A stretch of DNA of 64,000 nt from contig PNAA01000056.1 in assembly GCA_003169975.1 (NCBI GenBank), positions 3,123 to 67,122 on the forward strand, in the 5' to 3' direction. The stretch is from Spartobacteria bacterium (GTDB lineage Bacteria > Verrucomicrobiota > Verrucomicrobiia > Chthoniobacterales > UBA10450). Every line of letters begins with the position of its first letter. The stretch's first letter is position 1. Below the pieces are notes generated by a model, which had not been told where the DNA came from, did not search any database, and saw only the letters and a program-made list of their open reading frames with translations. Positions 1 through 64,000 of the stretch are shown piece by piece. The position numbers and the translations under genes were made by a program.

Positions 1-75
1 ATCGCTCCGCACCCGCTTCTCCAGATTAATCGCGTAACTGAACAGTTCCCGCTCGCTCTTCTGCTCTCCCATCAT
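1..75 (-). mobile_element. 5' end (first 25 codons) of an IS5/IS1182-type transposase gene running off the left edge
   Basis: The reverse complement of 1-75 reads MMGEQKSERELFSYAINLEKRVRSD. From memory, the ELFSY..LE.RV motif is the usual N-terminus of IS5/IS1182-family DDE transposases. It is truncated by the window edge, so it is not in the ORF track. Confidence 0.45.
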
Positions 76-283
76 GCCAGGAGTGCTTTAACAGATCGCT
101 TCAGCTTTGGGTACTCTTATTTTTAGCGCCACGCCTTTGGGCAACACGCCCCATAGATGCGACCCCGTCTTCCGGCTGGCCAGCTCCATTCGGTCCGTTG
201 ATATGATGCGGACCGGTTCCGCCCGGCGGCCCGATTAATGCTTTATAACCGGATAAATTCAAACTTAGCAACGGCAACATACC

Positions 284-1789
284 ATGAATAATCGAACAAA
301 GTCACTTTGTCCCGGGCTCGCCTTTGGGCTTTCCCTCGCTTTCGCCACGCTCGCGACTCTTGTTACACAAGGTCACGCCCAATCCCTCGGTTCCGCCGAG
401 ACTTTCACCGTCTTGGGCGCTTCGACCGTCACAAATACCGGCACCAGCCAGATTATCGGAGACGTCGGGGTCAGCCCCGGCTCTGCCATCACCGGATTCC
501 CGCCCGGCGTCATTACTAATGGCGCACTGCACGCGAATGACGCCGCGGCGAAACAGGCGCATGCTGACTTTGCCACCGCCTACACCGCCTTTGCGGCCCT
601 TGTCTCGCCACCCGCCAATAACCTAACCGGGACTGATCTCGGCGGCCTGACCCTTGCACCCGGTGTTTATCGTTTTGACACGTCGGCCGCCTCAGCCGGC
701 ATTCTGACACTGGATGCACAGAATGATCCCAACGCACGCTTCGTCATTCAAATTGGCACGACCCTCGTCACGGCGAGCAATTCCTCGGTCCACCTCATCA
801 ACCAAGCGGACGCGCGGAATGTCTATTTTCAAGCAGGCACGTCCGTAACACTCGGCAGCGGCAGTACTTTTATCGGTAACCTTCTCGCTGGCGCCTCCGT
901 CACTGCGGTGAGTGGCACCAATCTGACTGGACGACTCCTGGCCCTGACAGGCGCGGTGACCCTTGATACAAACAACGTGACCAGTCCAGGATTGTCTTCG
1001 CCAACCCCGACTCCGAGTCCGGCCCAGCTTCTAAACATTTCCACGCGTCTGAATGTCCAGACCGGGGACAACGTCGCGATCGCTGGGTTCATCATCACTG
1101 GCAATGCGTCCAAAAAAGTAATCGTCCGCGGAATCGGCCCATCGATCGTCGGCCTAACGCCACTTTTAGCTGACCCGGTGCTTGAACTGCACGGAGCGAG
1201 TGGCGCACTCATTACAGGCAATGATAATTGGAAAGATACCCAGGAAGCCGAAATCATCGCGTCCACCATTTCCCCAACCAATGCTTTGGAATCGGCCATC
1301 GTCGCCACGCTCCCGCCCGATGCTTACACTGCCATCTTGAGCGGCAAGAACGGAACTACGGGCATCGGCCTCGTCGAAATGTATGACCTGGACGCTGCCT
1401 CCGATTCCAAGCTGGCCAACCTCAGCACTCGCGGCTTTGTCCAAACCGGTAACGATGTCATGATTGGCGGCTTTATCTTCGGTGACGGCACGGCCAGCGA
1501 AAATGTGCTTATCCGAGGCATCGGCCCTTCGCTCCCCGGAATTGCGAACGTTCTGGCCGATCCAACGCTTAAGCTTTACGATGGCAATGGCACACTCCTC
1601 ATGTTCGACGACAATTGGCAGGACGACGCGCTCCAGGCAGCAGCAATCGCGGCGACTGGGATTCCACCGCAGAACGCCTTGGAGTCAGCCATTGTCGCGA
1701 CCCTGCCCCCGGGTGTCTATACCGCAATTGTCTCAGGCAATAATGGCGGCACCGGGGTCGCACTGGTCGAAGTCTATCACCTCCCATAA
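284..1789 (+). CDS. secreted ice-binding-like (DUF3494) protein with two C-terminal tandem repeat domains
   Basis: Signal peptide (MNNRTKSLCPGLAFGLSLAFATLATLVTQGHA). AETFTVLGASTVTNTG...IGDVGVSPG..ITGFPPG is the typical DUF3494 opening. The C-terminal half is duplicated. Confidence 0.8.
   Translation: MNNRTKSLCPGLAFGLSLAFATLATLVTQGHAQSLGSAETFTVLGASTVTNTGTSQIIGDVGVSPGSAITGFPPGVITNGALHANDAAAKQAHADFATAYTAFAALVSPPANNLTGTDLGGLTLAPGVYRFDTSAASAGILTLDAQNDPNARFVIQIGTTLVTASNSSVHLINQADARNVYFQAGTSVTLGSGSTFIGNLLAGASVTAVSGTNLTGRLLALTGAVTLDTNNVTSPGLSSPTPTPSPAQLLNISTRLNVQTGDNVAIAGFIITGNASKKVIVRGIGPSIVGLTPLLADPVLELHGASGALITGNDNWKDTQEAEIIASTISPTNALESAIVATLPPDAYTAILSGKNGTTGIGLVEMYDLDAASDSKLANLSTRGFVQTGNDVMIGGFIFGDGTASENVLIRGIGPSLPGIANVLADPTLKLYDGNGTLLMFDDNWQDDALQAAAIAATGIPPQNALESAIVATLPPGVYTAIVSGNNGGTGVALVEVYHLP
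1027..1786 (+). repeat. two tandem ~120-aa intragenic repeats (about 1027-1392 and 1405-1786)
   Basis: Both copies share N(I/L)STR..VQTG..V.I.GFI..G....V..RGIGPS...LADP.L.L......NDNW......NALESAIVATLPP..YTAI.SG.NG.TG..LVE.Y. Confidence 0.8.
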
Positions 1790-1923
1790 TGGGGCCTGTG
1801 GGACCAAACCTCCGCGGGCGCGGAAGACAATCGCTCGTGAAGCGGTGGCGTACTTTTTGAATCACTCGCAAAATAGCGCCGTTAAGCGCGCTTGCGTTAC
1901 ACTCGCGGGAGATTGGTTAACGA

Positions 1924-2910
1924 TCATGGAATGAGCAGCACTTTCCCGATACTCTGGCGGCTCTCGAGATAAGCATGCGCCTTCGCTCCCTCGCGCAGGG
2001 GAAACGCTTTCGAGATTCGCACGTTCAATTTTCCCGAGCGCACCCACTCAAACAATTCCGCGGCGCGACCGATCCGTTCTTCGCGGCTCGTCAGAACATT
2101 CCAGAGATCGCCGCCGGTCAAAGTCTTCGACTCGTCCATCAGCCGGCGCGGATCGACCAAAGCGGGGTCGCCGCCCGCCATGCCATAGAAGACGACCTGC
2201 CCGCCTTTGCGCGTCACCCTCAGACTGGCATCGAGCGTCGCGCCGACGGAGTCATAGACAACATCCGCGCCCCTGCGATCTTTGGTTAAATTCAAGACTG
2301 CGTCCGGCCAGTCGTCGCCATAGAGGACGACCGCATCCGCGCCCGCTTCCAGCGCGGCGGCGCGCTTCGCCTCGCTGGAAGTGAGTGCGATGACCTTTCC
2401 GCCGAGCAACTTGATGATCTGCACGAGGAGCAGACCGACGCCGCCGGCCGCGGCATGCACGACTGCCTTTTCGTTAGGCGCGATCCGGTGGCTGTCCCGC
2501 GTCAGGTAGTGAGCAGTGAGACCTTGGAGGAGGAGCGCCGCCGCGGTTTCAAACGAAATGTCTTCCGGCAAGGGAATCAACTTTTCCAAAGGAACCATCG
2601 CCAGCTCTGCATTGGCGTGCGGACTATCGGCGAAGGCGAAGCGCTGACCCACTTTGACAACCGGAAGATCGTCAGGCGTGGCGCCCTCCGCATGGCAGAC
2701 CTCGACAACACCCGCGCCTTCGTAGCCAAGAATGTAGGGTGGCGCGCCGGCCAGGTGGTAGTTGCCACGCCGGCGGTAAATGTCGGCGAAGTTGAGTCCG
2801 ATCGCGCTTAGCCTAACGAGCGCGTGGCCCGGCGCGAGAATGGGATCGGGCAGGTCGCGATACTCCAGCACCTCGGGTCCGCCGAACTCTTCGAAACAGA
2901 GAGCTTTCAT
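1924..2910 (-). CDS. NADPH:quinone oxidoreductase / zinc-type alcohol dehydrogenase-like protein (MDR superfamily)
   Basis: 328 aa. MKALCFEEFGGPEVLEYRDLPDP...GLNFADIYRRRGNY and the AAAGGVG nucleotide-binding motif are typical of Qor-like enzymes. Confidence 0.85.
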   Translation of the reverse strand: MKALCFEEFGGPEVLEYRDLPDPILAPGHALVRLSAIGLNFADIYRRRGNYHLAGAPPYILGYEGAGVVEVCHAEGATPDDLPVVKVGQRFAFADSPHANAELAMVPLEKLIPLPEDISFETAAALLLQGLTAHYLTRDSHRIAPNEKAVVHAAAGGVGLLLVQIIKLLGGKVIALTSSEAKRAAALEAGADAVVLYGDDWPDAVLNLTKDRRGADVVYDSVGATLDASLRVTRKGGQVVFYGMAGGDPALVDPRRLMDESKTLTGGDLWNVLTSREERIGRAAELFEWVRSGKLNVRISKAFPLREGAKAHAYLESRQSIGKVLLIP

Positions 2911-3239
2911 TCGTTCGATCTCGCGGCCGGTATCCGTGATACGTATAGCACGGCGAAGGGATTTTTGGGGGAGCGCACGCGATCGGCGCCTCGCTGATCG
3001 CTTCTGCGGGCGCGGCGCTGGGCTCGAAAGAACATTTCGGCGAGGGCGCCGAAATGGGCACGCGGGGCGCGTGCGCTCCCCAGAGTCTGCCGCGCGAGCA
3101 CCGGGCGAGCTGATTCCATCGCTCGAGCCAACCGCAGAGCACGTTGCCGGACGAGCGGAAGCTCGTCCCTCCGGAGAGACTCGTCCTTCCTCGGCCCGCG
3201 CAGGATGACAGAATACGGTTTTGCTGCGAGAAAATCAAG

Positions 3240-5039
3240 ATGGACGAAACGAAAATCCCGACACGCGACGACATTCCCGAGGCTGACAAGTGGGATCTGT
3301 CGCAGCTTTTTACCAGCGCCGATAAATGGAGCGAGGACTTTGCGTGGATTCAATCGACCTATCCACGCCTAACGAACTGGAAGGGGCGGGTCGGCGAATC
3401 GGCCGCGACGCTCGCCGAGTTGCTCGAATTCGATAAGACGCTCGATCTGAAAATCGAACGCGTTTATCACTACGCCTCGCTCGAGTTGGCCGAGGACAGC
3501 TCGAATCCCGATTACCTCGCGCGGATGGGGGAGCTGCAGAATTTGCTCACGAAAATCGGCGAGACCGCGTCCTTCATCACGCCGGAAATCCAGGCGATCG
3601 AGGACGGGAAGTTTGCCCAGTACCTCGACGATCCGGCGCTGAAAGAATGGCGGATCTCCCTGCACAAGATCCGGCGGATGAAGCCACACGTCCTTTCCGA
3701 GAAGGAAGAACGGCTGCTCGCGCTCGGCAGCGCGGCGCTCGACGGCTACGACGATGCGTTTTCACAGCTCACGGACGTCGACATGAAATTCGGCGTGCTT
3801 ATCGATGACAAAGGCGAGGAACGCCCGCTCTCGCAAAGTTCCTTGAGTTCGTTTCTCGTGAAACGCGATCACGAGCTGCGAAAGCGCGCCTTTCACCAAT
3901 TCTACGCGGAGTTTCAGGATCATCAGTTCACCCTCGCGGCAGCTCTTTCCTATTCGGTCAAAGCGGATGTTTTCCGGGCCCGGGCGCGGAACTATTTGTC
4001 GGCGCTGGAGGCTTCGCTTTTCAAGGACGATATCCCGAGCGCGGTCTACGACGGGTTGATCGCAGCCGTCACGCAAAATCTTGCGCCGCTTTTTCGCTAC
4101 TACGATCTGCGCCGGCGCGTCCTTGGATTGAGCGAACTGCACCACTACGACACCTATGTGCCACTGGTCGCCGAGATCGAGACGAACGTCTCTTTTGACG
4201 AAGCGATCACCGATGTGCTGGATTCGCTGACGCCGTTAGGCAAGGAATATGTTGAAACGTTAGGCGCGGGTCTGCGCGGACGCTGGTGCGATCGCTACGA
4301 ATCGAAAGGGAAACGAAGTGGCGCTTTTTCGAGCGGCAGCTACGGCGCGCCGCCCTACATCCTGATGAATTACAAGCGCGACGTCTTCTCGGATATTTTC
4401 ACGCTCGCCCATGAGGCGGGTCATTCGATGCACACCTGGTTCGCGCAACGGGCGCAGCGTTATCAGGATGCGGACTATCCGATCTTTCTCGCGGAGGTAG
4501 CGTCGACGTTTAACGAAGAGCTGCTTACCCATTACCTCCTCGAGCGCACAACCGATCCGAAGATGCGCGCCTACATCATCAATCGCCAGATCGATGACAT
4601 TCGCGGCACGCTCTTCCGGCAAACGATGTTTGCCGAGTTCGAGAAAATCATCCACGCCATCGAGGAAAGCGGCGCGGCGCTGACGCTCGATGTTTTCAAA
4701 AGCGAATATCGCAGGTTGCTCGAGGCCTATTTCGGACCGGGCGTGGTGCTCGATCCCGAGCTTGACCTCGAGGGCCTGCGCATTCCGCATTTTTATCATG
4801 CGTTTTACGTTTACAAATATGCGACCGGCGTCTCGGCGGCGATCGCGCTGGCGGAACGCGTGTTGACGGGAGTGCCGGGAGCGGTCGAGGCCTATCTCGA
4901 TTTTTTGAAATCGGGCGGTTCGAAGTTTCCGCTCGAGACGTTGCAGACCGCGGGCGTCGATATGAGGACTTCCGCGCCGGTGGAGAGCACTCTGCGGCTC
5001 TTCGATCGTCGGGTGACCGAGCTCGAAGGCCTCTTGTAG
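3240..5039 (+). CDS. pepF: oligoendopeptidase F (M3B metallopeptidase)
   Basis: HEAGH zinc motif (TLAHEAGHSMH) and PepF-like length. I prefer the ATG at 3240 (MDETKIPTRDD...) over the track start at 3144. Confidence 0.9.
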   Translation: MDETKIPTRDDIPEADKWDLSQLFTSADKWSEDFAWIQSTYPRLTNWKGRVGESAATLAELLEFDKTLDLKIERVYHYASLELAEDSSNPDYLARMGELQNLLTKIGETASFITPEIQAIEDGKFAQYLDDPALKEWRISLHKIRRMKPHVLSEKEERLLALGSAALDGYDDAFSQLTDVDMKFGVLIDDKGEERPLSQSSLSSFLVKRDHELRKRAFHQFYAEFQDHQFTLAAALSYSVKADVFRARARNYLSALEASLFKDDIPSAVYDGLIAAVTQNLAPLFRYYDLRRRVLGLSELHHYDTYVPLVAEIETNVSFDEAITDVLDSLTPLGKEYVETLGAGLRGRWCDRYESKGKRSGAFSSGSYGAPPYILMNYKRDVFSDIFTLAHEAGHSMHTWFAQRAQRYQDADYPIFLAEVASTFNEELLTHYLLERTTDPKMRAYIINRQIDDIRGTLFRQTMFAEFEKIIHAIEESGAALTLDVFKSEYRRLLEAYFGPGVVLDPELDLEGLRIPHFYHAFYVYKYATGVSAAIALAERVLTGVPGAVEAYLDFLKSGGSKFPLETLQTAGVDMRTSAPVESTLRLFDRRVTELEGLL

Positions 5040-5676: not shown

Positions 5677-6840
5677 ATGCTGGAAAGACCGCCGCGGCAG
5701 CATCGAACTCCTCCAGCACGGCCATTGCCTCTCGCTCGAGTCACCGACCCCGGCTACAACTGTCTCGTGGAGCGAGAAGTGGAATTGCTGATCGAAGACA
5801 TCGCCTTCGGCGGAAAGGGCGTCGGGCGAGCGGAAGGCAAAGCCGTCTTTGTTCCCTTCACGATCGAGGGCGAGCGGGTCGCGGCGCGCGTCGTGCGAGA
5901 GAAAAAATCGTTCGCGGAAGCGGATCTGGTGACGGTGCTGGAATCCTCGCCGCAGCGCACCACGCCGCAGTGCCCCTATTTCGAGCGATGCGGCGGCTGC
6001 AGTTACCAGCACATGAGTTACGAGCATCAACTGCACTGGAAAGCGCGCCAGGTCCGACAGGCGCTTCAGCGCATCGGAAAATTTCGCGAGCCGCCGGTGC
6101 GCCCGATCGTCCCCTCGCCGCACGACTATGAATATCGCAACCGGATCACGGTGCATGTCGAGAACGGCATCGTCGGATTTTTCCGGCGCGACGGCCATCG
6201 GTTGATCGACATCGAACGCTGCCCGATCGCCGCGCCAGCGGTGAATGACGAACTCACCGCGCTCCGGGCGCGGCGCCCACGCGACGGCCATTACACCTTG
6301 CGCGCGCAGAGCGGCCCGCGCGTCTTCTCCCAGACGAATGACGCGGTCGCCACCCACCTCGCTGACGCGATCGCGGCCCTGGTTCCGCCTAACGAATCGC
6401 TCCTGATCGACGCTTACTGCGGCGCCGGATTTTTCGCGAAACGGCTGAAAGCGAAATTTTCGCGGATCGTCGGGATTGACTGGGACATCCACGCGATCGC
6501 CGCCGCGGAGGCGAACGCGACCGCGGCGGAAACCTATTGCGCCGGGGAGATCGCGACGCATCTCGGAGAGCGACTCGCGGGCGCCAATCTCAAGAGCACG
6601 ACCGTGATCGTTGATCCGCCGGCGACCGGCTTGGGTGCCGATGTGCGCGAGATCCTCCGTCGCTATCCGGCTGCGACGCTTCTTTACGTCTCGTGCAATC
6701 CGCCGACGCTGGCGCGCGACCTGGCCGATCTGGGGGCGGCTTTCACCCTCCAAAGCGTGACGCCCTTCGACATGTTTCCGCAGACCGCCGAGATCGAAGT
6801 TCTCGCCCATCTCACGGGCAGCGAGATCGCAGCTCGTTAA
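5677..6840 (+). CDS. RumA/RlmD-type RNA (uracil-5)-methyltransferase with TRAM domain and Fe-S cluster
   Basis: TRAM-like N-terminus (LIEDIAFGGKGVGR), Cys cluster CPYFERCGGCSYQHM, SAM-MTase motifs (DAYCGAGFF, VDPPATG, YVSCNP). The exact start is uncertain. Confidence 0.85.
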   Translation: MLERPPRQHRTPPARPLPLARVTDPGYNCLVEREVELLIEDIAFGGKGVGRAEGKAVFVPFTIEGERVAARVVREKKSFAEADLVTVLESSPQRTTPQCPYFERCGGCSYQHMSYEHQLHWKARQVRQALQRIGKFREPPVRPIVPSPHDYEYRNRITVHVENGIVGFFRRDGHRLIDIERCPIAAPAVNDELTALRARRPRDGHYTLRAQSGPRVFSQTNDAVATHLADAIAALVPPNESLLIDAYCGAGFFAKRLKAKFSRIVGIDWDIHAIAAAEANATAAETYCAGEIATHLGERLAGANLKSTTVIVDPPATGLGADVREILRRYPAATLLYVSCNPPTLARDLADLGAAFTLQSVTPFDMFPQTAEIEVLAHLTGSEIAAR

Positions 6841-6930
6841 CGAATTCTTAACGTCTGCGGCCATTCCTTTGATTGGCGCGGATGCGAAGTCGAGTTCCCA
6901 AGCGGGAGCGACAAGGGTAAGGTTCGACGG

Positions 6931-8253
6931 ATGCACATCTTGATCGTTGACGACGAAAAGAACATTCGCCGCGCCTTGACAATGGCGCTGGAATCGATGG
7001 AGCATGCCGTGACTTGTGCTTCGAATAGCGCTACGGCGATGGCGGAATTGCGCACCGCTTCGTTCGATGTCGTCCTCCTGGATCTAAAGTTAAGCCAGGA
7101 AAACGGACTCGATGTGCTGGAGGAAATCCTGCGTATCTCGCCGCAGACGGCGGTCGTGATGGTGACGGCCTATGCGTCGATCGAGACGGCGGTGGAGGCG
7201 ATGCGACGCGGCGCATTTGATTACCTGCCGAAACCCTGCACACCGGATCAGGTGCGACAGGTAATCGGGAGGATCGAGAAGACCCGGAAGCTGGAACGAC
7301 GGGTCGTCGAGTTGGAGTCGCGTCTGGGAGCGGACGGACCGGAGAGCGATCTCACGTCACAATCGCCCGCCATGCAGAAGGTGCTCGAGATCGCGTTCAA
7401 AGTGGCAGAGAGCGAAGCGATCGTTCTCCTTCTCGGCGAGAGCGGCACGGGCAAGAGCGTCCTGGCGCGAGCGATGCATCAACGAAGTCCGCGCCGCGGC
7501 GGAGCCTTTGTGACGGTGAGTTGTCCAAGCCTTTCGCGAGAGCTGTTGCAAAGCGATTTGTTCGGCCACGTCAAGGGCGCGTTCACCGGCGCGTATGCCG
7601 ACACCCTGGGCAAGGTCGCGGCGGCGGATGGCGGCACGTTGTTTCTTGACGAAATCGGTGAGTTGCCGCTGGAGATTCAGGCAAAACTGCTGCGGCTCTT
7701 GCAGGAGCGAGAATATGAACGGGTCGGCGAATCGAAGCCGCGCCGAGCCAACGTGCGGGTGATCTCGGCGACGAACCGCGATCTCGCACAGGCAGTCGCG
7801 GATGGCAAGTTTCGCGAAGATCTTTTCTACCGGCTGAATGTCATCTCGCTCCGCCTGCCGCCGCTGCGCGATCGCATGGACGATCTGGAGAAGATTGCGC
7901 GTAGCCATCTGACCTTTCTCGCCGGACACGCGGGCAAGAATGTGCGCGGTTTCTCGCCCGACGCGCTGACCGCGATGCGGCAATACGCGTGGCCGGGCAA
8001 TCTCCGCGAGCTTCATAACGTGATCGAGCGGGCGGTGATTTTGTGCAGCAGCGAAATGATTGAGGCGGACGATCTGTCCGACACGATTCAAACCAGCTCC
8101 GAGTTGCGCCTCGGCGGAAAACTCACCGTGCACGAAATCGAAACGGAGCACATTCGGCGGGTGGTAGCGAGCACGCGCAACCTGGATGAAGCAGCGACGA
8201 TTCTCGGCATTGATCCGGCAACGCTCTACCGCAAACGCAAGAAGCTCTTCTAA
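6931..8253 (+). CDS. sigma-54-dependent response regulator (REC + AAA+ + Fis-type HTH; NtrC family)
   Basis: MHILIVDDE...DVVLLDLKL receiver, GESGTGKS Walker A, GAFTGA loop, and a C-terminal HTH ([19 protein letters not shown]). Confidence 0.9.
7841..8253 (+). repeat. direct repeat copy A (3' end of the sigma-54 activator gene); partner at 10503-10912
   Basis: Aligned by eye to 10503-10912: about 96% identity, with a perfectly identical core at 7930-8075 = 10592-10737. Confidence 0.9.
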
Positions 8254-8261
8254 GCCGCAGA

Positions 8262-8480: not shown

Positions 8481-8603
8481 CGGCTACGGGATGATTAGAA
8501 GATTGCTCCTCTCTTCCAAAATTCCAAACTCTGTCACGACCGGCGCGATGATCAGCTTGATTTATGACTCAGGATCTCTGACCGTCTCGCAAGAGTTTCC
8601 AGC

Positions 8604-13740: not shown

Positions 13741-13741
13741 A

Positions 13742-54419: not shown

Positions 54420-54491
54420 GATGGATTAAGGCGTTATGGGTTGAAGCGGTGAAGCGTGACATTACCCGGCGCAGGAAGCAAGGAGAGGAGA

Positions 54492-54603: not shown

Positions 54604-54665
54604 TTTTCCGATTACGACTCGCGTAACTGGAAAATCCGATCTACTCCTTGAGGGTCTCTCTTCCT

Positions 54666-55967
54666 ATGCCGCAATCTCCTGCTCTGCCGCCCGGCACCAC
54701 CCAGCGCACCCTCTCCATCATCATGGGCGGCGGCGCGGGGACACGCTTGTTTCCGCTGACCAAGGATCGTTCCAAACCGGCGGTTCCGTTAGGCGGAAAA
54801 TACCGGCTGGTCGACATCCCGATCAGCAACTGCCTCAACTCCGGGCTGCGCTCGATCTACGTGCTCACCCAGTTCAACAGCATGTCGCTCCATCGCCATA
54901 TCCAGGCGAGCTACAAGTTCGATAATTTTTCACGCAGCTTTGTCGACATTCTCGCCGCGCAACAAACCCCCGAGGGCGCCCAGTGGTACCAGGGCACCGC
55001 CGACGCCGTCCGGCAAAACCTCCGTTATTTCCTCGAGCAGCCCTACGACTATTTCCTCATCCTGAGCGGCGACCAGCTCTATCGGATGGATTTTCGAACG
55101 CTCCTCCACCAGCACATCCGCTCCGGTGCCGAGATCACGCTGGCCACCACGCCCGTGCAGCGCACCGCCGCCACCGATTTCGGGATCATGTTGAGCGGAC
55201 CGGACCGGAGGATCACGCGGTTCGAGGAAAAGCCGAAGGAAACAGCGGTGCTCGACGAGCTGAAAATGGATCGCGAGCTGCTCACTTCGATCGAGAGCAA
55301 CCCCGATGAAGAACTGTTTCAAGCGTCGATGGGCATTTACGTTTTCAATCGCCAGGTGCTGGTCGATTGCCTGAACAGCGATCTCGACGATTTCGGCAAG
55401 CACGTCATCCCGCGGGCGATCGGCGAACGGCACGTCAATGCGTTTATTTTCAAGGGCTACTGGGAAGACATCGGAACGATCCGCGCTTTCTACGAGGCGA
55501 ATCTCGACCTGACCAATCTCGTGCCTAACTATAGCTTCTTCGATGCGCAGGCACCGATCTATACCCACCCGCGCTTCCTGCCCGGGAGCAAAATCAACGG
55601 CGCGACGCTCCGCCAGGCGATCATCTCGGACGGCTGCATCATTTCCGACGCCCACATCGAACGCAGCGTGATCGGGGTGCGCAGCATCATCCGGAGCGGG
55701 GCGACGATCCGCAACAGCGTGCTCATGGGCGGCGACCATTTTGAAGGAGCCGCGCCCGCCAAATCGCCCGACCTGCCGCCGATCGGCATTGGACGAAACT
55801 GCGTGATCGATCGCGCGATCATCGACAAGAACGCGCGCATCGGCGACGGCGTGGTGATCACGCCGGAAGGCAAGGAAGCGAATCTCGACGCGCCCAATTA
55901 CTACATTCGCGACGGGATCGTGGTCGTGCCGAAAGATGCGGTCATTCCCGCCGGCTTTTGGATATAG
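54666..55967 (+). CDS. glgC: glucose-1-phosphate adenylyltransferase
   Basis: IIMGGGAGTRLFPLTKDRSKPAVPLGGKYRLVDIPISN signature. I prefer the ATG at 54666 over the TTG at 54648. Confidence 0.9.
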   Translation: MPQSPALPPGTTQRTLSIIMGGGAGTRLFPLTKDRSKPAVPLGGKYRLVDIPISNCLNSGLRSIYVLTQFNSMSLHRHIQASYKFDNFSRSFVDILAAQQTPEGAQWYQGTADAVRQNLRYFLEQPYDYFLILSGDQLYRMDFRTLLHQHIRSGAEITLATTPVQRTAATDFGIMLSGPDRRITRFEEKPKETAVLDELKMDRELLTSIESNPDEELFQASMGIYVFNRQVLVDCLNSDLDDFGKHVIPRAIGERHVNAFIFKGYWEDIGTIRAFYEANLDLTNLVPNYSFFDAQAPIYTHPRFLPGSKINGATLRQAIISDGCIISDAHIERSVIGVRSIIRSGATIRNSVLMGGDHFEGAAPAKSPDLPPIGIGRNCVIDRAIIDKNARIGDGVVITPEGKEANLDAPNYYIRDGIVVVPKDAVIPAGFWI

Positions 55968-55993: not shown

Positions 55994-56242
55994 TCAGTAG
56001 CCGGCAGGATTGTTGGGATTGACGCCACCGTTGGCGCCGTTGAGTCCCGCGGGCAAGCCGGCCGTGCTTTCCCAGCCCTGCGGCTTGTTCCACGGAATAC
56101 TCGACTCGCGCTGCGCATCGGGGTCGCCCAGCAAAGCGGTATGTTTCGGTTCATCGGTGGCACACGAACTCAAGGCGGCCGCCGCAAGCAAGATCGTTAG
56201 GCCGCAGCGAACCCTAAGATGACGAATTGTTACTTCCAGCAT
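55994..56242 (-). CDS. small lipoprotein (hypothetical)
   Basis: Lipobox LLAAAALSS-C, then a Pro/Gly/Asn-rich 50-aa tail. It overlaps the upstream gene end by 29 nt, so the start is uncertain. Confidence 0.45.
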   Translation of the reverse strand: MLEVTIRHLRVRCGLTILLAAAALSSCATDEPKHTALLGDPDAQRESSIPWNKPQGWESTAGLPAGLNGANGGVNPNNPAGY

Positions 56243-57047
56243 AAATGACGGTATCTCCAGGCTGCACTTGGACGCCGCGCGCCAAGCTATTGGTGATGAT
56301 ATCGCCTATCGAAGTGGTCGGTTCAACTGAGGAGATCCGGATTTTGCCGATCAGCGCCCCGCGGCGCATGACCAGCATCTCCGAGTTGGGCACCACACCC
56401 TGTCGATCGCCCATGCTGAGGACGACGAAATTGTAGGCCTGGTTGACCGCGAGAATCGTGCCGTGCACGCCGGGCGCGTTCACCCCCGATTCGCGCCGCT
56501 TTTTCTCCTCCTCGATCGCCGCGACCCGGTCCTGCGCGGCTCTCACCTTGTCCGCCAGCATCGACTTCTCCCGTTCCGCCGCCTCCAGTTGGTGCTTGGT
56601 GTCATCGAGCAACGCTTTCGATTCGTTAGGCGAAACGCCCTCCGGCGCGCCGGGCACCCCGCCGACGGTCGCTTCCGCCACCCGCTTCTTCAGATCCGCG
56701 ATCTGGCCCTCGCGCGCCTGCACCTTGGACTCCAGTTCGGCTTTCTCGTTTTGCGCCTTCGTCAGATCGGCTTCCGCGCTCGTCGCCTTCGCTTCCGCCG
56801 CCGTCGCTTTGTTCGCCGCCGCCGCGAACTCGACCTCGCGCGCCTTCAACTTCTTCTCGCTCGCCATCCGGGCCCGATCGGCTATCTCGCGCGCCGAGGA
56901 GGTGGTGACGATTTCGTTCCGCAAGCCCTTTAACTTGCTCGAATTCAAGAACCCGAAAAGCAGGGAGAGCGTCATCAGGAGGGCGGAAACCCCGATCAAT
57001 ATCTTGGGCATGTTGGCGAGTGGCTGAGGTAACGTCGTGATGGACAC
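56214..57047 (-). CDS. membrane-anchored coiled-coil protein with C-terminal beta-rich domain
   Basis: One TM helix (ILIGVSALLMTLSLLFGFL), about 150 aa of Ala/Glu/Lys heptad-like sequence, and a C-terminus GTILAVNQAYNFVVLSMGDRQGV... Confidence 0.6.
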   Translation of the reverse strand: MSITTLPQPLANMPKILIGVSALLMTLSLLFGFLNSSKLKGLRNEIVTTSSAREIADRARMASEKKLKAREVEFAAAANKATAAEAKATSAEADLTKAQNEKAELESKVQAREGQIADLKKRVAEATVGGVPGAPEGVSPNESKALLDDTKHQLEAAEREKSMLADKVRAAQDRVAAIEEEKKRRESGVNAPGVHGTILAVNQAYNFVVLSMGDRQGVVPNSEMLVMRRGALIGKIRISSVEPTTSIGDIITNSLARGVQVQPGDTVIYAGSNNSSS

Positions 57048-57371: not shown

Positions 57372-57776
57372 GTGCGGCCGCAATATCTCTTGGTCGACGG
57401 TCATAGCATTATTTTTGCCTGGCCAGAACTGCGGCTGCTCCATGCGCGCCGCACCTCCCTCGCGCGCGAGGCCCTCATCCGGCAGCTGCGCGACTACCAG
57501 GATTGGAGCGGGGTGCGTGTGGTTGTCGTCTTCGATGGCCGCGGCACGGCCATCTCCCACGAAGCCGATCCGGGCGAGATTCAAATCTTCTATTCGCGCG
57601 ACGGGCAAACGGCGGACTCGATCATCGAGCGTTTGGCGAGCAAATATGCGGAGCGCTTCGATCTCGTCGTCGCGACCGGCGATTACCTCGAGCAGGAAAC
57701 AGCGAGCGCGAGCGGTGCCGAGACCGTTTCCCCGGAAGGATTACGCGAACGCTTGCAGGAAGCCCGCCCTCGTTAG
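57372..57776 (+). CDS. NYN/YacP-like (DUF901) predicted ribonuclease
   Basis: LLVDGHSIIFAWPEL...VVVFDG...IFYSRDGQTADSIIERL is the YacP/Rae1-type NYN signature. GTG start. Confidence 0.75.
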   Translation: MRPQYLLVDGHSIIFAWPELRLLHARRTSLAREALIRQLRDYQDWSGVRVVVVFDGRGTAISHEADPGEIQIFYSRDGQTADSIIERLASKYAERFDLVVATGDYLEQETASASGAETVSPEGLRERLQEARPR

Positions 57777-58219
57777 GCTGCGCCGAGGAGCGCGGGACGC
57801 GCCCGAGCGAGCGCCTCACGACGCGCGCGCTGCCGGCACGTCGCAAGGACTCGCGAAAGGACACAATAAAGTTGTTCAATCGGGAGATTCTTGCTCACGT
57901 AGCCGTTCGCTCCCGCCCGCAGGGCCGCGTGCATTTTTTCTTCATCGTAGCCGACGCCGGTAAAGACGATGATGGGCAGGCTCGGCTGGATCTCGCGCAC
58001 GTAAGTAATGAGCGAGATGCCGTCCACTTTCGGCATGTTCAAATCGACCACCACCACTTCGCAGTCGTGCAGCTCGAGCCAGGAAGCGGTCTGGAAGCCC
58101 TCCGTCAATGTTGCGCAGGTGTGCCCCTTCTGTTTCAGGTAGCCGGCGAGGAATCTTGTGATCGCCGGATCGTCATCAATCACGAGGAAATCGGCTCGGT
58201 CCCGGTTGAGGATTTTCAT
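57773..58219 (-). CDS. single-domain CheY-like response regulator
   Basis: MKILNRDRADFLVIDDDP...VVVVDLNMPKVDG...FTGVG...GANGYVSK. I prefer the ATG at 58219 over the longer track ORF. Confidence 0.85.
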   Translation of the reverse strand: MKILNRDRADFLVIDDDPAITRFLAGYLKQKGHTCATLTEGFQTASWLELHDCEVVVVDLNMPKVDGISLITYVREIQPSLPIIVFTGVGYDEEKMHAALRAGANGYVSKNLPIEQLYCVLSRVLATCRQRARREALARARPALLGAA

Positions 58220-58484: not shown

Positions 58485-60554
58485 ATGTCCCGCGAATACA
58501 CACTCCAGCGCGCTCCCTCCGCGGCGACGATCAACATCGATTACAGGAGCGAGCTGAACGAGCAGCAGTACGCGGCCGTGACCGCGCCGCCCGGACCGCT
58601 GCTCGTCATCGCCGGCGCGGGCTCCGGCAAGACGCGCACCCTGACCTATCGTGTCGCCTACCTGCTCGAAAATGGCGTCGACCCGCGCAACATCCTTCTC
58701 CTCACCTTCACGAACAAAGCCGCGCGCCAGATGCTCGACCGGGTTGCGAATCTCCTCCCCGTCGATGCGAGCGGACTCTGGGGCGGGACGTTCCACTCCA
58801 TCGGTAACCGGATGCTGCGACGACACGGGAGCGCGCTCGGATATTCGAGCGGATTCACAATCATGGACCGCGAGGACCAGAAAGACCTGCTCAACGCGGT
58901 CGTCGCGGGTTCCGGCATTGATCCGAAGGAAATCCGGTTCCCGAAGGGTGAGGTGCTCGCGGATATTTTCAGTTTCGTCGTTAACACCGAGCGGCCGATC
59001 GAGGAATTGCTCGCGGAGAAGTTTCCGTATTTCCTTCCGCTCCTCGAGCAAATCAAGGACGTGCATCTGCGCTACGAGCGGCGGAAAAAATCGACGAACT
59101 CGCTCGATTTCGACGATCTGCTGGAGAAGACACTCCGGATGTTGAAGGAGCACGAGGAAATCGCGGCCTTCTATCGGCGGCAATTCCAGTTCATCCTGGT
59201 GGACGAATATCAGGACACGAACAAGATCCAGGCCGACCTCATCGACCTGCTCGCCGCGGAACACCAGAACGTGATGGTCGTGGGCGACGACGCGCAATCG
59301 ATCTATTCCTGGCGCGGGGCCAACTTCCAAAACATCCTCGCCTTCCCCCGGCGTTATCCCAGCGCGCAGGTCTTCAAGATCGAGCTTAACTATCGCAGCG
59401 TGCCGGAGATCCTGCAGGTGGCGAACGCGGCCATCGCGGCCAATGTGCAGCAGTTCCGTAAACAGCTCAGCGCTACGCGCCTAACGAACTCGTTGAAACC
59501 CGCGATCGTGGCCCTGAACGATGGCGGCGAGCAATCGCAGTTCATCGCCCAGCGCATTCTCGAGCTGCGCGATGAAGGGATCGAGTTGAACGAGATCGCA
59601 GTCCTTTACCGGGCGCACTATCACGCGGTGGAGCTGCAATTGGAGCTTTCGCGCCGCGGCATTCCCTATCAGATCACCAGCGGCATTCGTTTCTTCGAGC
59701 AGGCGCACATCAAAGACGTCGCGGCCTTCATTCGCTTCGTCGCCAATCCGCGCGATGAAGTCGCTTTCAAACGAATGGTTCGGCTGCTGCCGGGCATCGG
59801 CGGCAAGAGCGCGGAGAATCTTTGGCGTTCCTGGGAAGAGTCGTTAGGCGAAACGACTCCCGTTGTCGCCGGGGGCGCTGACCCCGGCTCGGTAAATATG
59901 GCCGGATCGCCGGCCGGGGTCACCGCGCCCGGCTACAATTTTGGCGATCGGCTGCGCGCGCTGCCAGTCGGCGCGCGGTCAAAGAAATCCTGGGAGCAAC
60001 TGGCTTATACCCTCGACGAAATCGCGCCTCACGGGCAGCCGAACCAGCCGACCGAGATGATCATGTCGATCGTCGAGGCGATTTACGATGACTACGCGAA
60101 GGCCAATTTCGCCAATTACGAGCTGCGCAAGGAAGACCTTACGCAACTCGCCGCTTTCGCGCGCCAGTTCAAAGACATTCACGAATTTCTCTCGCAACTC
60201 GCGCTCATCAGCAATGTCGATGCGGAGCCGGCGGCCAACCAGACCGGCGACACCGAGGCGGTGAATCTGTCCACCGTGCACCAGGCGAAAGGACTCGAGT
60301 TCCACTCCGTCTTTGTCATTTGGCTGACCGACGGAATGTTCCCCAGCACCCGCTCGCTCGAGACCCGCAACGCGATCGAAGAAGAGCGCCGTCTTTTTTA
60401 CGTCGCGATCACCCGCGCCAAAGACGAACTCTATCTCACCTATCCGCACATGCGCCTCAACGCCGGCTACGGCGACATGTTTCAGCGCCCGTCGCGTTTC
60501 CTGAAAGAGATTCCGACCACGCTCGTCGAGGACTGGAATGTGAGGAGGGGTTAA
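58485..60554 (+). CDS. ATP-dependent DNA helicase, UvrD/PcrA/Rep family
   Basis: AGAGSGKTRTLTYR (motif I), LVDEYQDTN (II), VVGDDAQSIYSWRGA (III), VHQAKGLEF, YVAITRAK. Confidence 0.9.
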   Translation: MSREYTLQRAPSAATINIDYRSELNEQQYAAVTAPPGPLLVIAGAGSGKTRTLTYRVAYLLENGVDPRNILLLTFTNKAARQMLDRVANLLPVDASGLWGGTFHSIGNRMLRRHGSALGYSSGFTIMDREDQKDLLNAVVAGSGIDPKEIRFPKGEVLADIFSFVVNTERPIEELLAEKFPYFLPLLEQIKDVHLRYERRKKSTNSLDFDDLLEKTLRMLKEHEEIAAFYRRQFQFILVDEYQDTNKIQADLIDLLAAEHQNVMVVGDDAQSIYSWRGANFQNILAFPRRYPSAQVFKIELNYRSVPEILQVANAAIAANVQQFRKQLSATRLTNSLKPAIVALNDGGEQSQFIAQRILELRDEGIELNEIAVLYRAHYHAVELQLELSRRGIPYQITSGIRFFEQAHIKDVAAFIRFVANPRDEVAFKRMVRLLPGIGGKSAENLWRSWEESLGETTPVVAGGADPGSVNMAGSPAGVTAPGYNFGDRLRALPVGARSKKSWEQLAYTLDEIAPHGQPNQPTEMIMSIVEAIYDDYAKANFANYELRKEDLTQLAAFARQFKDIHEFLSQLALISNVDAEPAANQTGDTEAVNLSTVHQAKGLEFHSVFVIWLTDGMFPSTRSLETRNAIEEERRLFYVAITRAKDELYLTYPHMRLNAGYGDMFQRPSRFLKEIPTTLVEDWNVRRG

Positions 60555-60681
60555 AATGACGAAGCACGAATGACGAAGCCAGAAGGAATGACGAAATCCG
60601 AATGACAAAAACAGAAGATGCTCTTTCGTCATTCGACCTTCGACATTGATTCGGATTTCGTCATTCGTGCTTCGTCATTTT
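60553..60681. repeat. 129-bp palindromic element with perfect 25-bp terminal inverted repeats (AAAATGACGAAGCACGAATGACGAA), copy 2 of the ATGACGAA family
   Basis: 60553-60577 is the exact reverse complement of 60657-60681. The inner arms also pair apart from a 17-nt bulge. It spans from the helicase stop codon to 4 nt before the malQ ATG. Confidence 0.75.
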
Positions 60682-60685: not shown

Positions 60686-62431
60686 ATGAATCTCTCGCCT
60701 AACGATCGCATCGCCGGCGTCCTCTCCCCGCTCTTCGCCCTTCGGACCGAGGACGACCTCGGCATCGGCGACGTCGCCGGCTTGCGGCAATTCATCGCCT
60801 GGGTCCGCACCATCGGTTTCAAACTGGTGCAACTCCTGCCGATCAACGAAACCGGAGGCGACCACAGCCCCTACAATGCGATCAGCTCGCGCGCGATCGA
60901 CCCGACCACGCTTCAGCTCACGCCGGGCGTGCCGGAAGATCTCTCGGCGCAGGCCTTCGCCGAGGTGACCGCGGGGATCGACCTCCCGGCCTTGCGTCGC
61001 GGCCGCGTGAAATACGGGATCGTCAAGCCGCTGAAGAAAAAACTGCTCGAGCGCGCCTTCGAGGCTTTTCGCGCAGGCGAGCGAACCGATGCGCCGGCGA
61101 AAGAGGCGTTTGCTTCCTTCTGCGAAGCGGAAAAATCCTGGCTCGCCGATTACACCCTCTTCCGGGTCCTGATGGAAATAAACGGCGACCGAGAAACCTG
61201 GGATGAGTGGCAGGCGGGACATTCCGAGATCGACGCCGCCCACCGCTGGCTCGACTCGTTAGGCGAAGAGGAGCGTGCGCTCTTTGCCCGGCGCCGGGAT
61301 TTTCACAACTACGTGCAATGGATCGCCCATCGACAGTGGCGCGAGGTGAAAAAATACGCGGAAGAGCAAGGGGTCGCGCTGATGGGCGACATTCCTTTTG
61401 GCATCAGCTACTACAGCGCCGACGTTTTCGCGCATCCCGATCGGTTCGCGCTCGATTGGTCCGGCGGCGCGCCGCCCGAACCTTATTTCAAGGACGATGC
61501 CTTCACCCAAAAGTGGGGCCAGAACTGGGGCATCCCGCTCTATCGCTGGGAGGTGATGCGAAGCCGTAATTTCGACTGGTGGCGGCAACGGGTGCACGGG
61601 GTGCGGGAAATTTTCCACCTCTTTCGCATCGATCACGTGCTCGGATTTTACCGCATCTATGCTTTCCCCTGGCGGCCTCGCTACAACCCGGAGTTTCTGC
61701 CTCTGGCTTGGGAGGAAATGCGCGCGCGCACCGGCGGGCGGGAACCGCATTTTGCGCCGCGCGATGATCGCAGCTGGGAAAATTGCGAAGCGAACAAGCG
61801 CGAGGGAGAAGATTACCTCCGCATCGTTCTCGAGGAATCAGGAGCGACCCGCGTCGTGGGGGAGGATCTCGGAACGGTGCCCGACTACGTGCGCCCGAGT
61901 TTACGTTCGTTAGGCATCGCCGGCTTTAAGATTCCGCAATGGGAAAATTATCCCGACCATCGCTCGATCCCGGGAAGCGCCTACGAACGCATTTCGGTCG
62001 CGACCTTTGCGACCCACGATCACAAGCCGCTGCGCGCACTCTGGGAGGAGGCTTTCGAGACACCCTCCGGCTCGGCCGAACAAGCGCGCCACGATCTCGC
62101 GAAGATCGCGGAGTTTGCCGGGCTCGCTTCCCCTCACGAAGGGATGGTTTACCCGCAGGATTTTTACCCGGCGATTTTCGAGGCGCTCTTTCGCAGCGAA
62201 TCCTGGATCGCGCTGGTCATGATCACGGATCTCCTTGGGCGGAAGGAGCGGTTCAATGTTCCCGGAACTGCGGCGAATACGAATTGGACGCGACGCCTCT
62301 ACACCACGGTTGGCAGATTAGGTGGCAGTCGCGCCCTCAAGCGGCAAATGCGTCTCGTGCGCGAGTTGCTGGAGAAGTCTGGACGCATCGTCATCCCGAG
62401 CGAAGCCGAGGGATCCCGTGAAGTCACCTGA
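60686..62431 (+). CDS. malQ: 4-alpha-glucanotransferase (amylomaltase, GH77)
   Basis: GVLSPLFALRTEDDLGIGD, SPYNAISS, LMGDIPFGI, FRIDHVLGF, VGEDLGTVP catalytic-region motifs. Confidence 0.9.
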   Translation: MNLSPNDRIAGVLSPLFALRTEDDLGIGDVAGLRQFIAWVRTIGFKLVQLLPINETGGDHSPYNAISSRAIDPTTLQLTPGVPEDLSAQAFAEVTAGIDLPALRRGRVKYGIVKPLKKKLLERAFEAFRAGERTDAPAKEAFASFCEAEKSWLADYTLFRVLMEINGDRETWDEWQAGHSEIDAAHRWLDSLGEEERALFARRRDFHNYVQWIAHRQWREVKKYAEEQGVALMGDIPFGISYYSADVFAHPDRFALDWSGGAPPEPYFKDDAFTQKWGQNWGIPLYRWEVMRSRNFDWWRQRVHGVREIFHLFRIDHVLGFYRIYAFPWRPRYNPEFLPLAWEEMRARTGGREPHFAPRDDRSWENCEANKREGEDYLRIVLEESGATRVVGEDLGTVPDYVRPSLRSLGIAGFKIPQWENYPDHRSIPGSAYERISVATFATHDHKPLRALWEEAFETPSGSAEQARHDLAKIAEFAGLASPHEGMVYPQDFYPAIFEALFRSESWIALVMITDLLGRKERFNVPGTAANTNWTRRLYTTVGRLGGSRALKRQMRLVRELLEKSGRIVIPSEAEGSREVT

Positions 62432-62497
62432 GATTTCCGCCGCGCGATCCCTCGGCTGCGCTCGGGATGACAGCGAGCCTATCCGCGCTTATCAAAT

Positions 62498-63484
62498 ATG
62501 ATGAATTCACCTATCAAAGTCGCCGTCACCGGCGCGGCTGGCCAAATCGGATACTCGCTTCTTTTTCGCATCGCTTCGGGTTCGATGTTCGGCCCGGACC
62601 AGCCGGTCTACCTCTCGCTGATTGAAATTCCGCCGGCGCTCGGCGCGCTCGAAGGCGTGGTGATGGAATTGCACGATTGCGCTTTCCCGCTTCTCAAAGG
62701 CATCACGAAGACTGCCGATCTCGAAGAAGGTTTTCGCGGCGTGAATTGGGCACTGCTCGTCGGCAGCATCCCGCGCAAAGCCGGGATGGAGCGCGGCGAT
62801 TTGCTCGGGATCAACGGCAAGATTTTCATCGGGCAGGGCAAAGCGATTGAGAAAAACGCGGCCGCCGATGCGCGCGTCCTGGTCGTCGGCAATCCCTGCA
62901 ATACGAATTGCCTGATCGCGATGAACAACGCGAAATCCATCCCGCGCGATCGCTGGTTCGCCATGACGCGGCTGGATGAAAATCGTGCCAAGGCACAGCT
63001 CGCGCAAAAGGCGGGAGTCGATGTCACCGTGGTCACGAACATGACCATCTGGGGCAACCATTCGGCGACGCAGTATCCCGATTTCTACAACGCGAAAATC
63101 AACGGCCAACCGGCAAACGAAGTGATCGCTGACGAAAGCTGGTTGAAGGAAACGTTTATCCCGGCCGTCCAGCAGCGCGGCGCGGCGATCATCAAAGCGC
63201 GCGGGCTCTCCTCCGCCGCCTCCGCGGCCAACGCGGTCGCCGACACGGTTCGCTCCCTAACGAGCGAAACTCGGGACGACGACTGGAACAGCGTGGCGGT
63301 CTGCTCCGATGGAAGCTACGGTGTGGAGGAAGGTCTGATCAGTTCTTTCCCGATTCGATCGCAGAGTGGCAAATGGCAGATCGTGCAAGACGTTCCATGG
63401 AACGATTTTAGCCGCGCGAAAATTGACGCTTCCGTCGCCGAGCTGAAGGAAGAGAAATCGCTCGTCAATGAACTGATCTCCTAG
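62498..63484 (+). CDS. mdh: malate dehydrogenase
   Basis: [42 protein letters not shown]: LDH-like MDH signatures. Confidence 0.95.
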
Positions 63485-63508
63485 GCTCGGAGGGAGTCGA
63501 TATCCGCG

Positions 63509-64000
63509 ATGCCGATGCGCTGGGCGATAATAACTGGCATGTACAATGTGGCCGATTTGGCCGCAGAATTCTGCAGTTATCATCTCGACCTCGGCGTGGA
63601 CAAAATAATTGTCGCTGAATACGGATCGGATGACGGGACGCTCGATCTCCTTCGTCCTTTCGTGCGGGAGGGCGTCGTCCAACTGGTGCCGATACCGACG
63701 CATCGTTTTGTCGATTATGATCCGTCGAATGCCCTCTTGGGGATGGTCCGGGCGGACGACGCCGCGGACTGGGTTTCATTCCTGGACACGGACGAGTTTT
63801 TGACCGGTCCGGCGGATCTTAAAGCGTCTCTCGCTCAAGAGTGGTCCCGAGGTGTCAAAGCGATCGCAGTGCCTCGCGCCAACCTGACCGGCATTGAAAC
63901 GATTCCGGACCAAGCGCATTACTTGAAGCACCTGACGCTAAAGATCGTCGCCACTGACGCACGAGTATCGAGCGCGTCAGCCCCACTTTCCTCACCTTGG
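63509..64000 (+). CDS. glycosyltransferase-like protein, N-terminal part (runs off the right edge)
   Basis: I translated it by hand: MPMRWAIITGMYNVADLAAEFCSYHLDLGVDKIIVAEYGSDDGTLDLL...WVSFLDTDEFL, open to position 64000. DGT and DxDEF motifs suggest a GT-A fold (GT2/GT92-like). Confidence 0.55.
   Translation, partial: MPMRWAIITGMYNVADLAAEFCSYHLDLGVDKIIVAEYGSDDGTLDLLRPFVREGVVQLVPIPTHRFVDYDPSNALLGMVRADDAADWVSFLDTDEFLTGPADLKASLAQEWSRGVKAIAVPRANLTGIETIPDQAHYLKHLTLKIVATDARVSSASAPLSSPW

Follow-up and report, generated by a model that had tools for sequence, protein, structure and literature searches.

A 64-kb stretch of contig PNAA01000056.1 from a Spartobacteria bacterium (the whole stretch is called the window throughout) is densely populated by a short DNA word, the 9-mer GCCTAACGA. 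Judged by its likeness to the DNA uptake sequences (DUS) of Neisseriaceae and the uptake signal sequences (USS) of Pasteurellaceae, we give an even chance to the proposal that this is a species-group-specific 'self' word of the uptake-sequence type, spread by molecular drive in natural transformation. A pattern search on both strands returned 41 exact copies of the 8-mer GCCTAACG, 20 on the plus and 21 on the minus strand; an earlier inspection of the DNA (the sequence-only reading) had arrived at the same count and at the same coordinates except for 27838, a typing error for 27828. Dinucleotide-preserving shuffles of the window contained 1.21 ± 1.15 copies of the 8-mer (maximum 6) and Markov models of order 1-3 predicted 1.3-1.7. 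For the 9-mer, 35 copies were observed against 0.33-0.57 expected at the same Markov orders, an excess of about 61-fold. The strictest null used was a synonymous-codon shuffle, which holds every protein and the pooled codon usage fixed and yielded 0.88 ± 0.89 in-gene copies (maximum 4) compared to the 34 observed. A Markov null of maximal order (39 copies expected, 41 observed) was rejected as uninformative because its sub-words consist of the copies of GCCTAACG themselves, and Markov models of order 1-3, dinucleotide shuffles and synonymous-codon shuffles were adopted instead; of the higher-order Markov comparison proposed in the sequence-only reading, only these lower orders were of use.

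Alignment of the 41 copies showed that the conserved unit is GCCTAACGA, with A at position +8 in 35 of them. Flanking preferences were found for A or T at +9 (30/41), for C at -1 (18/41) and for a purine at +13, which bears out the consensus (C)GCCTAACGA(A/T) deduced beforehand. Further out the information content of the flanks was about zero, and the copies are therefore not part of a longer repeat; a dispersed repeat family with extended flanking homology had already been doubted in the sequence-only reading. The 'many one-mismatch variants' described there exist in a weak sense only, as one-mismatch 9-mers were enriched about 2-fold (27 compared to about 14 expected in the window). Outside an island of 19.3 kb the word has a density of 0.92/kb, and its copies are spaced somewhat more evenly than at random (coefficient of variation 0.72 compared to 0.97, P=0.03). 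GCCTAACGA differs from its own reverse complement and contains no GATC or CGATCG core.

Using a gene model of open reading frames (ORFs) supported by GC content at third codon positions (GC3) and annotated with Pfam, 34 of the 41 copies (83%) were placed within genes and 7 between genes, the window being 87.6% coding. In genes the word is read as x-L-G (15 copies), x-L-T (9), P-N-D/E (7) or V-R-L (3), i.e. all four stop-free combinations of frame and orientation are occupied, one frame per orientation being barred because a stop codon (TAA or TAG) arises. The peptides quoted from the sequence alone (ESLGEGD, ESLGTGQ, ETLGIKV, ESLGETT, DSLGEEE, RSLGIAG, RLTNW, RLTKTK and the P-N-D/E readings) were all recovered. 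The leucine codon TTA makes up 2.9% of the Leu codons of the window, and 15 of its 62 occurrences fall inside the word, as do 9 of the 54 CTA codons. Six copies lack the final A, some of them in conserved stretches of serA, glmS and glgC, as expected if protein constraint limits the approach to the word. In-gene copies lie on the sense strand in 16 cases and on the antisense strand in 18. A block of co-oriented genes at 1-39 kb holds 9 plus and 9 minus copies, and 19 word-rich genomes hold 122 plus and 124 minus copies, so that the absence of a polarity of the Chi or KOPS (FtsK orienting polar sequence) type, noted earlier for the window, extends to the relatives. Among these 246 copies there were 4 convergent and 4 divergent close pairs of opposite orientation (within 100 bp).

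Relatives were sampled as GlmS-centred loci, one genome per species and 10 kb on either side of glmS. These loci place the window in the Chthoniobacterales (Verrucomicrobiota), near Candidatus Udaeobacter; the relatives are all metagenome-assembled genomes from soil or peat, and the closest locus shows 97% GlmS identity and 88.8% nucleotide identity. GCCTAACGA was the top or a near-top 9-mer in the 14 closest genomes (L001-L014). Pooling this clade with the window (15 genomes, 324 kb) gave 161 copies compared to 2.6 expected, which is 61-fold and 0.50/kb. The word recurs in at least 15 independent assemblies from different studies and is therefore a real and reproducible property of the lineage. 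Its history is visible at two sites, in glmS (53304) and in glgC (54787), where most genomes outside the clade carry GCCGAGCG with Leu CTC and the clade carries GCCTAACG with Leu TTA. The replacement of CTC by TTA takes two synonymous changes towards an AT-rich codon that is rare in this genome (GC3 about 75%), and the single-step intermediates CTA, CTG and TTG were all found within the clade at these sites. Over 1,008 homologous site pairs, identity came to 0.87 for the word compared to 0.79 for its flanks; at the codon-wobble phase it was 0.74-0.90 in the word and 0.57-0.65 just outside. The 8-mer was perfectly kept in 54% of the homologous pairs, compared to 13-24% for same-phase 8-mers 12-36 nt away, all these figures being effect sizes and not P values because the site pairs are phylogenetically non-independent. 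Conservation in relatives extends to intergenic copies (42085, 44998, 56195 and 57771). Sites one step off the word differ from it at positions 0, 3, 4, 5, 6 and 7, i.e. at six of the eight, transversions included, which argues against a repair bias acting on a single mismatch (Vsr type). The conservation footprint is confined to the word, and the evidence points to the DNA word itself being driven or maintained. The earlier suggestion that selection or drive acts on the DNA and not on a peptide is upheld by the four frame classes, by the share of TTA and CTA codons inside the word and by the CTC to TTA replacement in glmS and glgC.

The copies and the island are listed below in window coordinates. 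Each copy reads GCCTAACGA unless another ending is given, the strand is that of the word, and 'antisense' refers to the gene named.

1152-1159 (+): GCCTAACGc, in the ice-binding-like gene 284-1789 (+), G-L-T
2472-2479 (-): in the Zn-dehydrogenase gene 1924-2910 (-), P-N-E
2811-2818 (+): antisense in the Zn-dehydrogenase gene 1924-2910 (-), V-R-L
3367-3374 (+): in the oligopeptidase F/M3 gene 3144-5039 (+), R-L-T
4234-4241 (-): GCCTAACGg, antisense in the M3 peptidase gene, P-L-G; conserved in L008
4258-4265 (-): GCCTAACGt, antisense in the M3 peptidase gene, T-L-G
6387-6394 (+): in the TRAM/RNA U5-methyltransferase gene 5677-6840 (+), P-N-E; conserved in L006 and L008; last copy before the island
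6395-25689 (no strand): word-free island, 19.3 kb, K+ homeostasis genes
25690-25697 (+): in the hypothetical gene 25466-26140 (+), P-N-E
27828-27835 (+): in the ArsP-type permease gene 27290-28324 (+), G-L-T
30561-30568 (-): antisense in the SPFH gene 30077-31900 (+), S-L-G
31904-31911 (+): in the SPFH gene 31785-32825 (+), P-N-D
33058-33065 (-): antisense in the SPFH gene 32822-33907 (+), V-R-L
34462-34469 (-): antisense in the P-type ATPase gene 33921-35906 (+), S-L-G in ESLGEGD
34730-34737 (-): antisense in the P-type ATPase gene 33921-35906 (+), V-R-L
36240-36247 (+): in the znuA-like gene 35903-36796 (+), S-L-T
37058-37065 (+): in the hypothetical gene 36814-37236 (+), S-L-T
37977-37984 (-): antisense in the ABC ATPase gene 37247-37990 (+), S-L-G, with the stop two codons on
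38306-38313 (-): antisense in the ABC-3 permease gene 37987-38865 (+), S-L-G
42085-42092 (+): intergenic; conserved in L002, L003 and L009
42973-42980 (+): antisense in copD 42580-43569 (-), S-L-G; L001 reads GCCGGACGA
43577-43584 (+): at the copD/copC junction; conserved in L001
43812-43819 (-): in copC 43579-43935 (-), P-N-E
44998-45005 (+): intergenic; conserved in L001
45338-45345 (+): antisense in the gene 45014-45394 (-), S-L-G; conserved in L001 and L003
46810-46817 (-): in the histidine kinase gene 45496-47124 (-), G-L-T
47194-47201 (-): intergenic
49344-49351 (+): in the permease+Usp gene 47954-49849 (+), G-L-T; shared by L001 only, 3-4 differences in five other relatives
50527-50534 (+): in serA 49842-51461 (+), R-L-T; conserved in 6 of 9 relatives
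50608-50615 (-): antisense in serA, S-L-G; present in 5 of 10 relatives
51061-51068 (-): GCCTAACGt, antisense in serA, T-L-G
51767-51774 (+): intergenic
53304-53311 (+): GCCTAACGt, antisense in glmS 52548-54419 (-), T-L-G; most outgroups GCCGAGCGT
54787-54794 (-): GCCTAACGg, antisense in glgC 54648-55967 (+), P-L-G; outgroups GCCGAGCGG
56195-56202 (-): intergenic; conserved in L001
56624-56631 (-): in the gene 56214-57047 (-), P-N-E; exact in 7 of 10 relatives
57771-57778 (-): between convergent gene ends; exact in 6 of 7 relatives
59479-59486 (+): in the UvrD-like helicase gene 58485-60554 (+), R-L-T; exact in 7 of 9 relatives
59842-59849 (-): antisense in the UvrD-like helicase gene, S-L-G
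60697-60704 (+): in malQ 60686-62431 (+), P-N-D
61257-61264 (-): antisense in malQ, S-L-G; exact in 5 of 6 relatives
61908-61915 (-): antisense in malQ, S-L-G; exact in 5 of 9 relatives

The SPFH/Band-7 genes at 30077-33907 (607, 346 and 361 aa), three in succession downstream of an amidase gene, hold one copy each. The longest word-free stretch outside the island is 38866-42084 (3.8 kb); it includes a TonB-dependent receptor gene (39898-42021) of lower GC content (56-57%), which may be another accessory gene.

The word exists in dialects. The word-rich genomes fall, on a GlmS tree, into one clade together with its sister pair L027/L041 and, apart from it, the pair L062/L079. The sister pair favours GCCTAACGA followed by R-T (GCCTAACGART), L062/L079 use the sharp 11-mer GCCTAACGAGT, and positions 10-11 are relaxed in the window's own clade; between close lineages the density of GCCTAACGA varies about 10-fold (0.06 to 0.9/kb). 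(The L062 locus, JBPCJC010000077.1, also contains a long poly-C run in which the 9-mer CCCCCCCCC was counted 73 times, probably an assembly or sequencing artefact.) Udaeobacter-like clades are rich in a different word, AAGATCGACA(A/T) or AAGATCGACAW, which is 59-fold enriched at up to 1.6/kb and was found 0 times compared to 1.4 expected in the window's clade. In L064, its core 8-mer AGATCGAC occurs 36 times in 21.9 kb (16 plus, 20 minus), with flanks lacking homology and with orthologous sites that converge. The carriers of this second word are L064, L043, L044, L048, L056, L058, L060, L063, L067 and L074; GCCTAACGAGT lies scattered among its copies, at low density, in L043 and L048. In scattered lineages, GCCTAACGA turns up repeatedly at the same orthologous positions, and together with its low-level enrichment where the second word or neither of the two is abundant (see below) this leads us to the view that the first word seems to be order-wide and old and to have been amplified in some lineages, the second word seeming to be a later addition.

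Between 6395 and 25689, a stretch that drew no comment in the sequence-only reading, no copy was found; given the 0.92/kb seen outside it, the probability of this is about 2e-8. This island encodes a sigma-54 response regulator, two KdpA proteins, KdpB, KdpC, the N-terminal part of KdpD, a histidine kinase, two response regulators and a BBP2 porin. The two kdpA genes, an extra one at 8604-10295 and that of the kdpABC operon at 15924-17747, are 44% identical. The C-terminal 136 residues of the sigma-54 regulator (AAA lid and Fis-type helix-turn-helix) are duplicated with 94% identity (7840-8247 and 10502-10909); the duplicated ends flank the extra kdpA, and this arrangement looks like a scar of recent insertion or duplication. 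The kdp clusters of the clade relatives L014 and L007 do contain the word. KdpB of the window is 67-70% identical to that of L014 and L007, whereas GlmS is 90-93% identical, and the best match of a metagenome scan was an 80% identical KdpB on short word-free contigs. This KdpB pattern fits acquisition from outside the clade, and by sequence comparison a foreign island appears likely but unproven. KdpA, KdpC and the BBP2 porin are closest to L014, which counts against foreign origin. Compositional support was dropped and the foreign origin is not proven because the tetranucleotide signature of the island is native-like, i.e. indistinguishable from that of the rest of the window. An exact-protein look-up for a donor gave only the same arrangement on contigs of at most 69 kb; at least 14 contigs from different samples share an identical KdpB. 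The metagenome scan contained no close donor (KdpB at most 80% identical, on short word-free contigs), a result that is suggestive and not decisive; the lack of a close donor and the native-like signature also count against foreign origin. Under a drive model, a rarely recombining accessory region would look alike. No tRNA gene was found in the window and its sole Rfam match is a c-di-AMP riboswitch (RF00379, 54 bits) at 23314-23473 (+), directly before the ORF 23466-25337. This ORF, which adjoins the kdp genes, encodes a transporter-like membrane protein of 623 aa that has its Usp domain at the C-terminus and is paralogous to the product of the APC-permease+Usp gene 47954-49849; riboswitch and Usp protein beside kdp suggest c-di-AMP control of a K+ importer.

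The closest likeness in arrangement is to the Pasteurellaceae USS, whose Hin-type (AAGTGCGGT) and Apl-type (ACAAGCGGT) cores are likewise non-palindromic, 9 bp long and present at about 1/kb. As here, USS mostly occur as single in-gene copies in several frames and both orientations where the proteins tolerate them, exact copies exceed one-off variants, A/T is weakly preferred just 3' of the core, and subclades have their own variants. The sequences are, however, unrelated, the hosts are Verrucomicrobiota and not Gammaproteobacteria, the word is known here from sequence alone, and the helically phased AT-rich flanking tracts of USS were not detected in our data. The Neisseriaceae DUS (GCCGTCTGAA and its dialects, with ComP as receptor) is a hyper-abundant 10-12-mer whose dialects keep the core and vary at the ends, to which GCCTAACGA, GCCTAACGART and GCCTAACGAGT correspond. 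It also begins with GCC and, like our word, is scarce in possible islands; DUS scarcity has been described as a means of detecting integrative and conjugative elements in Neisseria (PMC7371117). About half of the DUS copies lie in terminators, often as inverted pairs, whereas 83% of the copies here are coding and 8 of 246 lie in close opposite-orientation pairs. The arrangement is thus nearer to the USS than to the DUS: single, mostly coding and without inverted-pair terminators. The density of USS in H. influenzae and of DUS in Neisseria is roughly 0.8-0.9/kb. A 2025 survey still restricts DNA uptake enhancing sequences to the Neisseriaceae and the Pasteurellaceae, and the hallmarks it describes are the same. 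The resemblance to both systems, already pointed out in the sequence-only reading, is strengthened by the lineage restriction, the dialects, the conservation footprint, the word-free island and the slightly over-even spacing.

Since the word combines the genomic signature of DNA uptake enhancing sequences, biased uptake with homologous recombination is proposed; uptake bias, receptor, competence and recombination as the driver are all what we infer. Competent cells of the lineage would bind and import double-stranded fragments with the word better than other DNA, by means of a surface protein that by analogy could be a type IV minor pilin. ComP is the receptor in Neisseria, and ComN/PpdA is predicted to be the receptor in Pasteurellaceae. 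The imported strand would then replace the homologous chromosomal segment through RecA-mediated recombination, and alleles that had gained the word by mutation would be passed on more often than the word-free homologue, which constitutes molecular drive. Copies would accrue in both orientations at about 1/kb wherever the protein tolerates them, i.e. at synonymous positions (even with rare codons), at variable residues and in spacers. Divergence of receptor specificity would give lineages their dialects or new words, and DNA for which the population offers no homologue carrying the word, recent or accessory DNA for instance, would remain word-free.

Several observations weigh against this proposal. 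Inverted pairs and terminators in the Neisseria style were not found, close opposite-orientation pairs accounting for 8 of 246 copies, and the tetranucleotide signature of the island is that of its surroundings. In genomes where the second word abounds, or neither word does, GCCTAACGA still shows an 18-24-fold enrichment (0.06-0.08/kb), and both words are interspersed in L043 and L048; two unrelated words per genome require two specificities or long-term maintenance and are not predicted by a simple one-receptor model. The searchable literature holds no report of natural transformation in Chthoniobacterales or Verrucomicrobia. Nor did full-text searches turn up a relevant paper, whether they were aimed at the word or at competence, transformation or uptake sequences in Verrucomicrobia, Udaeobacter or Chthoniobacter. 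Finally, the cyanobacterial HIP1 (GCGATCGC) shows all the same genomic hallmarks, with a function that is not established as uptake. Among the Pfam-annotated ORFs of the 64-kb window, no competence, type IV pilus or receptor gene was found.

HIP1 is the model for the main rival, a chromosomal signal selected apart from uptake as a site of binding or modification by a host protein (an orphan or non-palindromic methyltransferase, a nucleoid protein or a recombination cofactor), to which we assign perhaps one chance in four. The sequence-only reading had likewise named methylation, recombination and nucleoid-protein targets as alternatives. HIP1 shares with our word the hyper-abundance, the lineage variants and the conservation at orthologous positions within and between ORFs; it is 15- to 300-fold over-represented, occurs at about one copy per gene and has no peptide or RNA role (PMC5861425). 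Orthologous conservation above the coding background is the argument used there for selection on HIP1, and HIP variants are lineage-specific too. The 18-24-fold persistence of GCCTAACGA in lineages rich in another word also fits a maintained function. HIP1, however, is a methylated palindrome that embeds methyltransferase targets (GATC, CGATCG), whereas the word here is asymmetric and has no known methylase core, and no DNA methyltransferase gene was found among the Pfam-annotated ORFs of the window. The roughly 10-fold swing in density between close lineages and the wholesale replacement by an unrelated word would be odd for a structural function, and we know of no nucleoid protein that uses an exact 9-11-mer at about 1/kb. 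The distinction is blurred by a 2024 preprint reporting that HIP1 raises the efficiency of natural transformation, which moves this rival towards the uptake proposal.

Less probable by some distance is a neutral by-product, in which sequence-specific biased repair or gene conversion of the very-short-patch (VSP) type would turn near-matches into a functionless word. The synonymous conversion towards the word in spite of codon and GC preference, its absence from an island of possibly short residence and a lineage specificity that could track the specificity of a repair enzyme are all compatible with it. Yet Vsr-type repair is known to fix only one T:G mismatch context, whereas the one-off sites here differ at six of eight positions and would need G>T and C>A transversions as well as GC>AT changes; the one-off variants are not depleted, as their 2-fold enrichment shows, and a specificity of 9-11 bp far exceeds that of known VSP systems. 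Chi, KOPS and architecture-imparting sequences (AIMS) are over-represented 8-mers along the chromosome, and a polar recombination or segregation signal of this kind, or an orientation-independent 'self' mark against a nuclease, could explain a short over-represented oligomer with no copy in an island that may be foreign; a Chi-like effect has even been proposed for HIP1. Chi and KOPS are strongly skewed between replichores and enriched few-fold, whereas our word is strand-neutral by the three counts given above (9/9, 20/21 and 122/124) and its 60-fold excess is far above the few-fold typical of Chi, which makes this explanation very improbable. What is left, namely a mobile repeat (repetitive extragenic palindrome, REP, or miniature inverted-repeat transposable element, MITE), a recurrent peptide motif, codon bias or an assembly artefact, has next to no probability and is already refuted: it could draw on the raw abundance and on the REP-like element that does exist in the window, but the flanks carry no information, the word occurs in four frames and on both strands, 0.9 copies are predicted under synonymous shuffling and at least 15 independent assemblies share the word. 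REP and MITE elements, which also reach many copies per genome, are intergenic and hairpin-forming with extended homology, unlike a bare 9-mer that lies in genes in 83% of cases.

The REP-like element is built of GAATGACGAA, which occurs 8 times in the window compared to 0.28 expected, at 60553-60681 and 54491-54604. Its copies follow one another as stacks of 7/14-nt units, those of one strand preceding those of the opposite strand, and form imperfect intergenic hairpins of 110-130 nt; the hairpin in the helicase/malQ spacer has arms of 58 nt that are 83% complementary. The same element was found in L001 (3838-3916), L015 (9761-9849), L042 (12863-12985), L049 (17048-17248) and L075 (7704-7819) and is spread across the whole order. 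As a candidate second dialect it was rejected: its copies always cluster, plus and then minus, within 150-200 bp in intergenic hairpins, and GAATGACGAA is REP-like and not a dispersed word because of this clustering.

By analogy with the proteobacterial systems, the phylum would be a new one for word systems that resemble uptake sequences; the words too are new, and a genome perhaps runs more than one of them. The broader proposal, that Chthoniobacterales practise natural transformation with sequence-based kin discrimination, that the word family (GCCTAACGA, the 11-mer dialects and AAGATCGACAW) arose independently of the proteobacterial DUS and USS and that more than one word is active in some genomes, draws on the same analogy and in our estimation falls just short of an even chance. 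To our knowledge, uptake sequences are known from only two proteobacterial families after 40 years, and no genomic footprint of bacterial 'sex' with self-recognition is clearer; if the proposal is true, this would be their third known origin and the first outside the Proteobacteria. The several dialects and the two unrelated words in one order would then provide a natural experiment on the co-evolution of word and receptor. The word could then also be put to practical use, to mark the lineage when metagenomes are binned, to flag imported DNA (the K+ island is an example) and, when added to DNA constructs, to help make hard-to-culture organisms genetically tractable. Should the word turn out to have no role in uptake, it would instead stand beside the still-unexplained HIP1 as its non-palindromic counterpart. 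Candidatus Udaeobacter, which belongs to the Chthoniobacterales, has been described among the most abundant soil bacterial groups on Earth, and if the word does act in uptake, kin-biased transformation would shape genomes in soil, in uncultured and globally dominant Verrucomicrobia.

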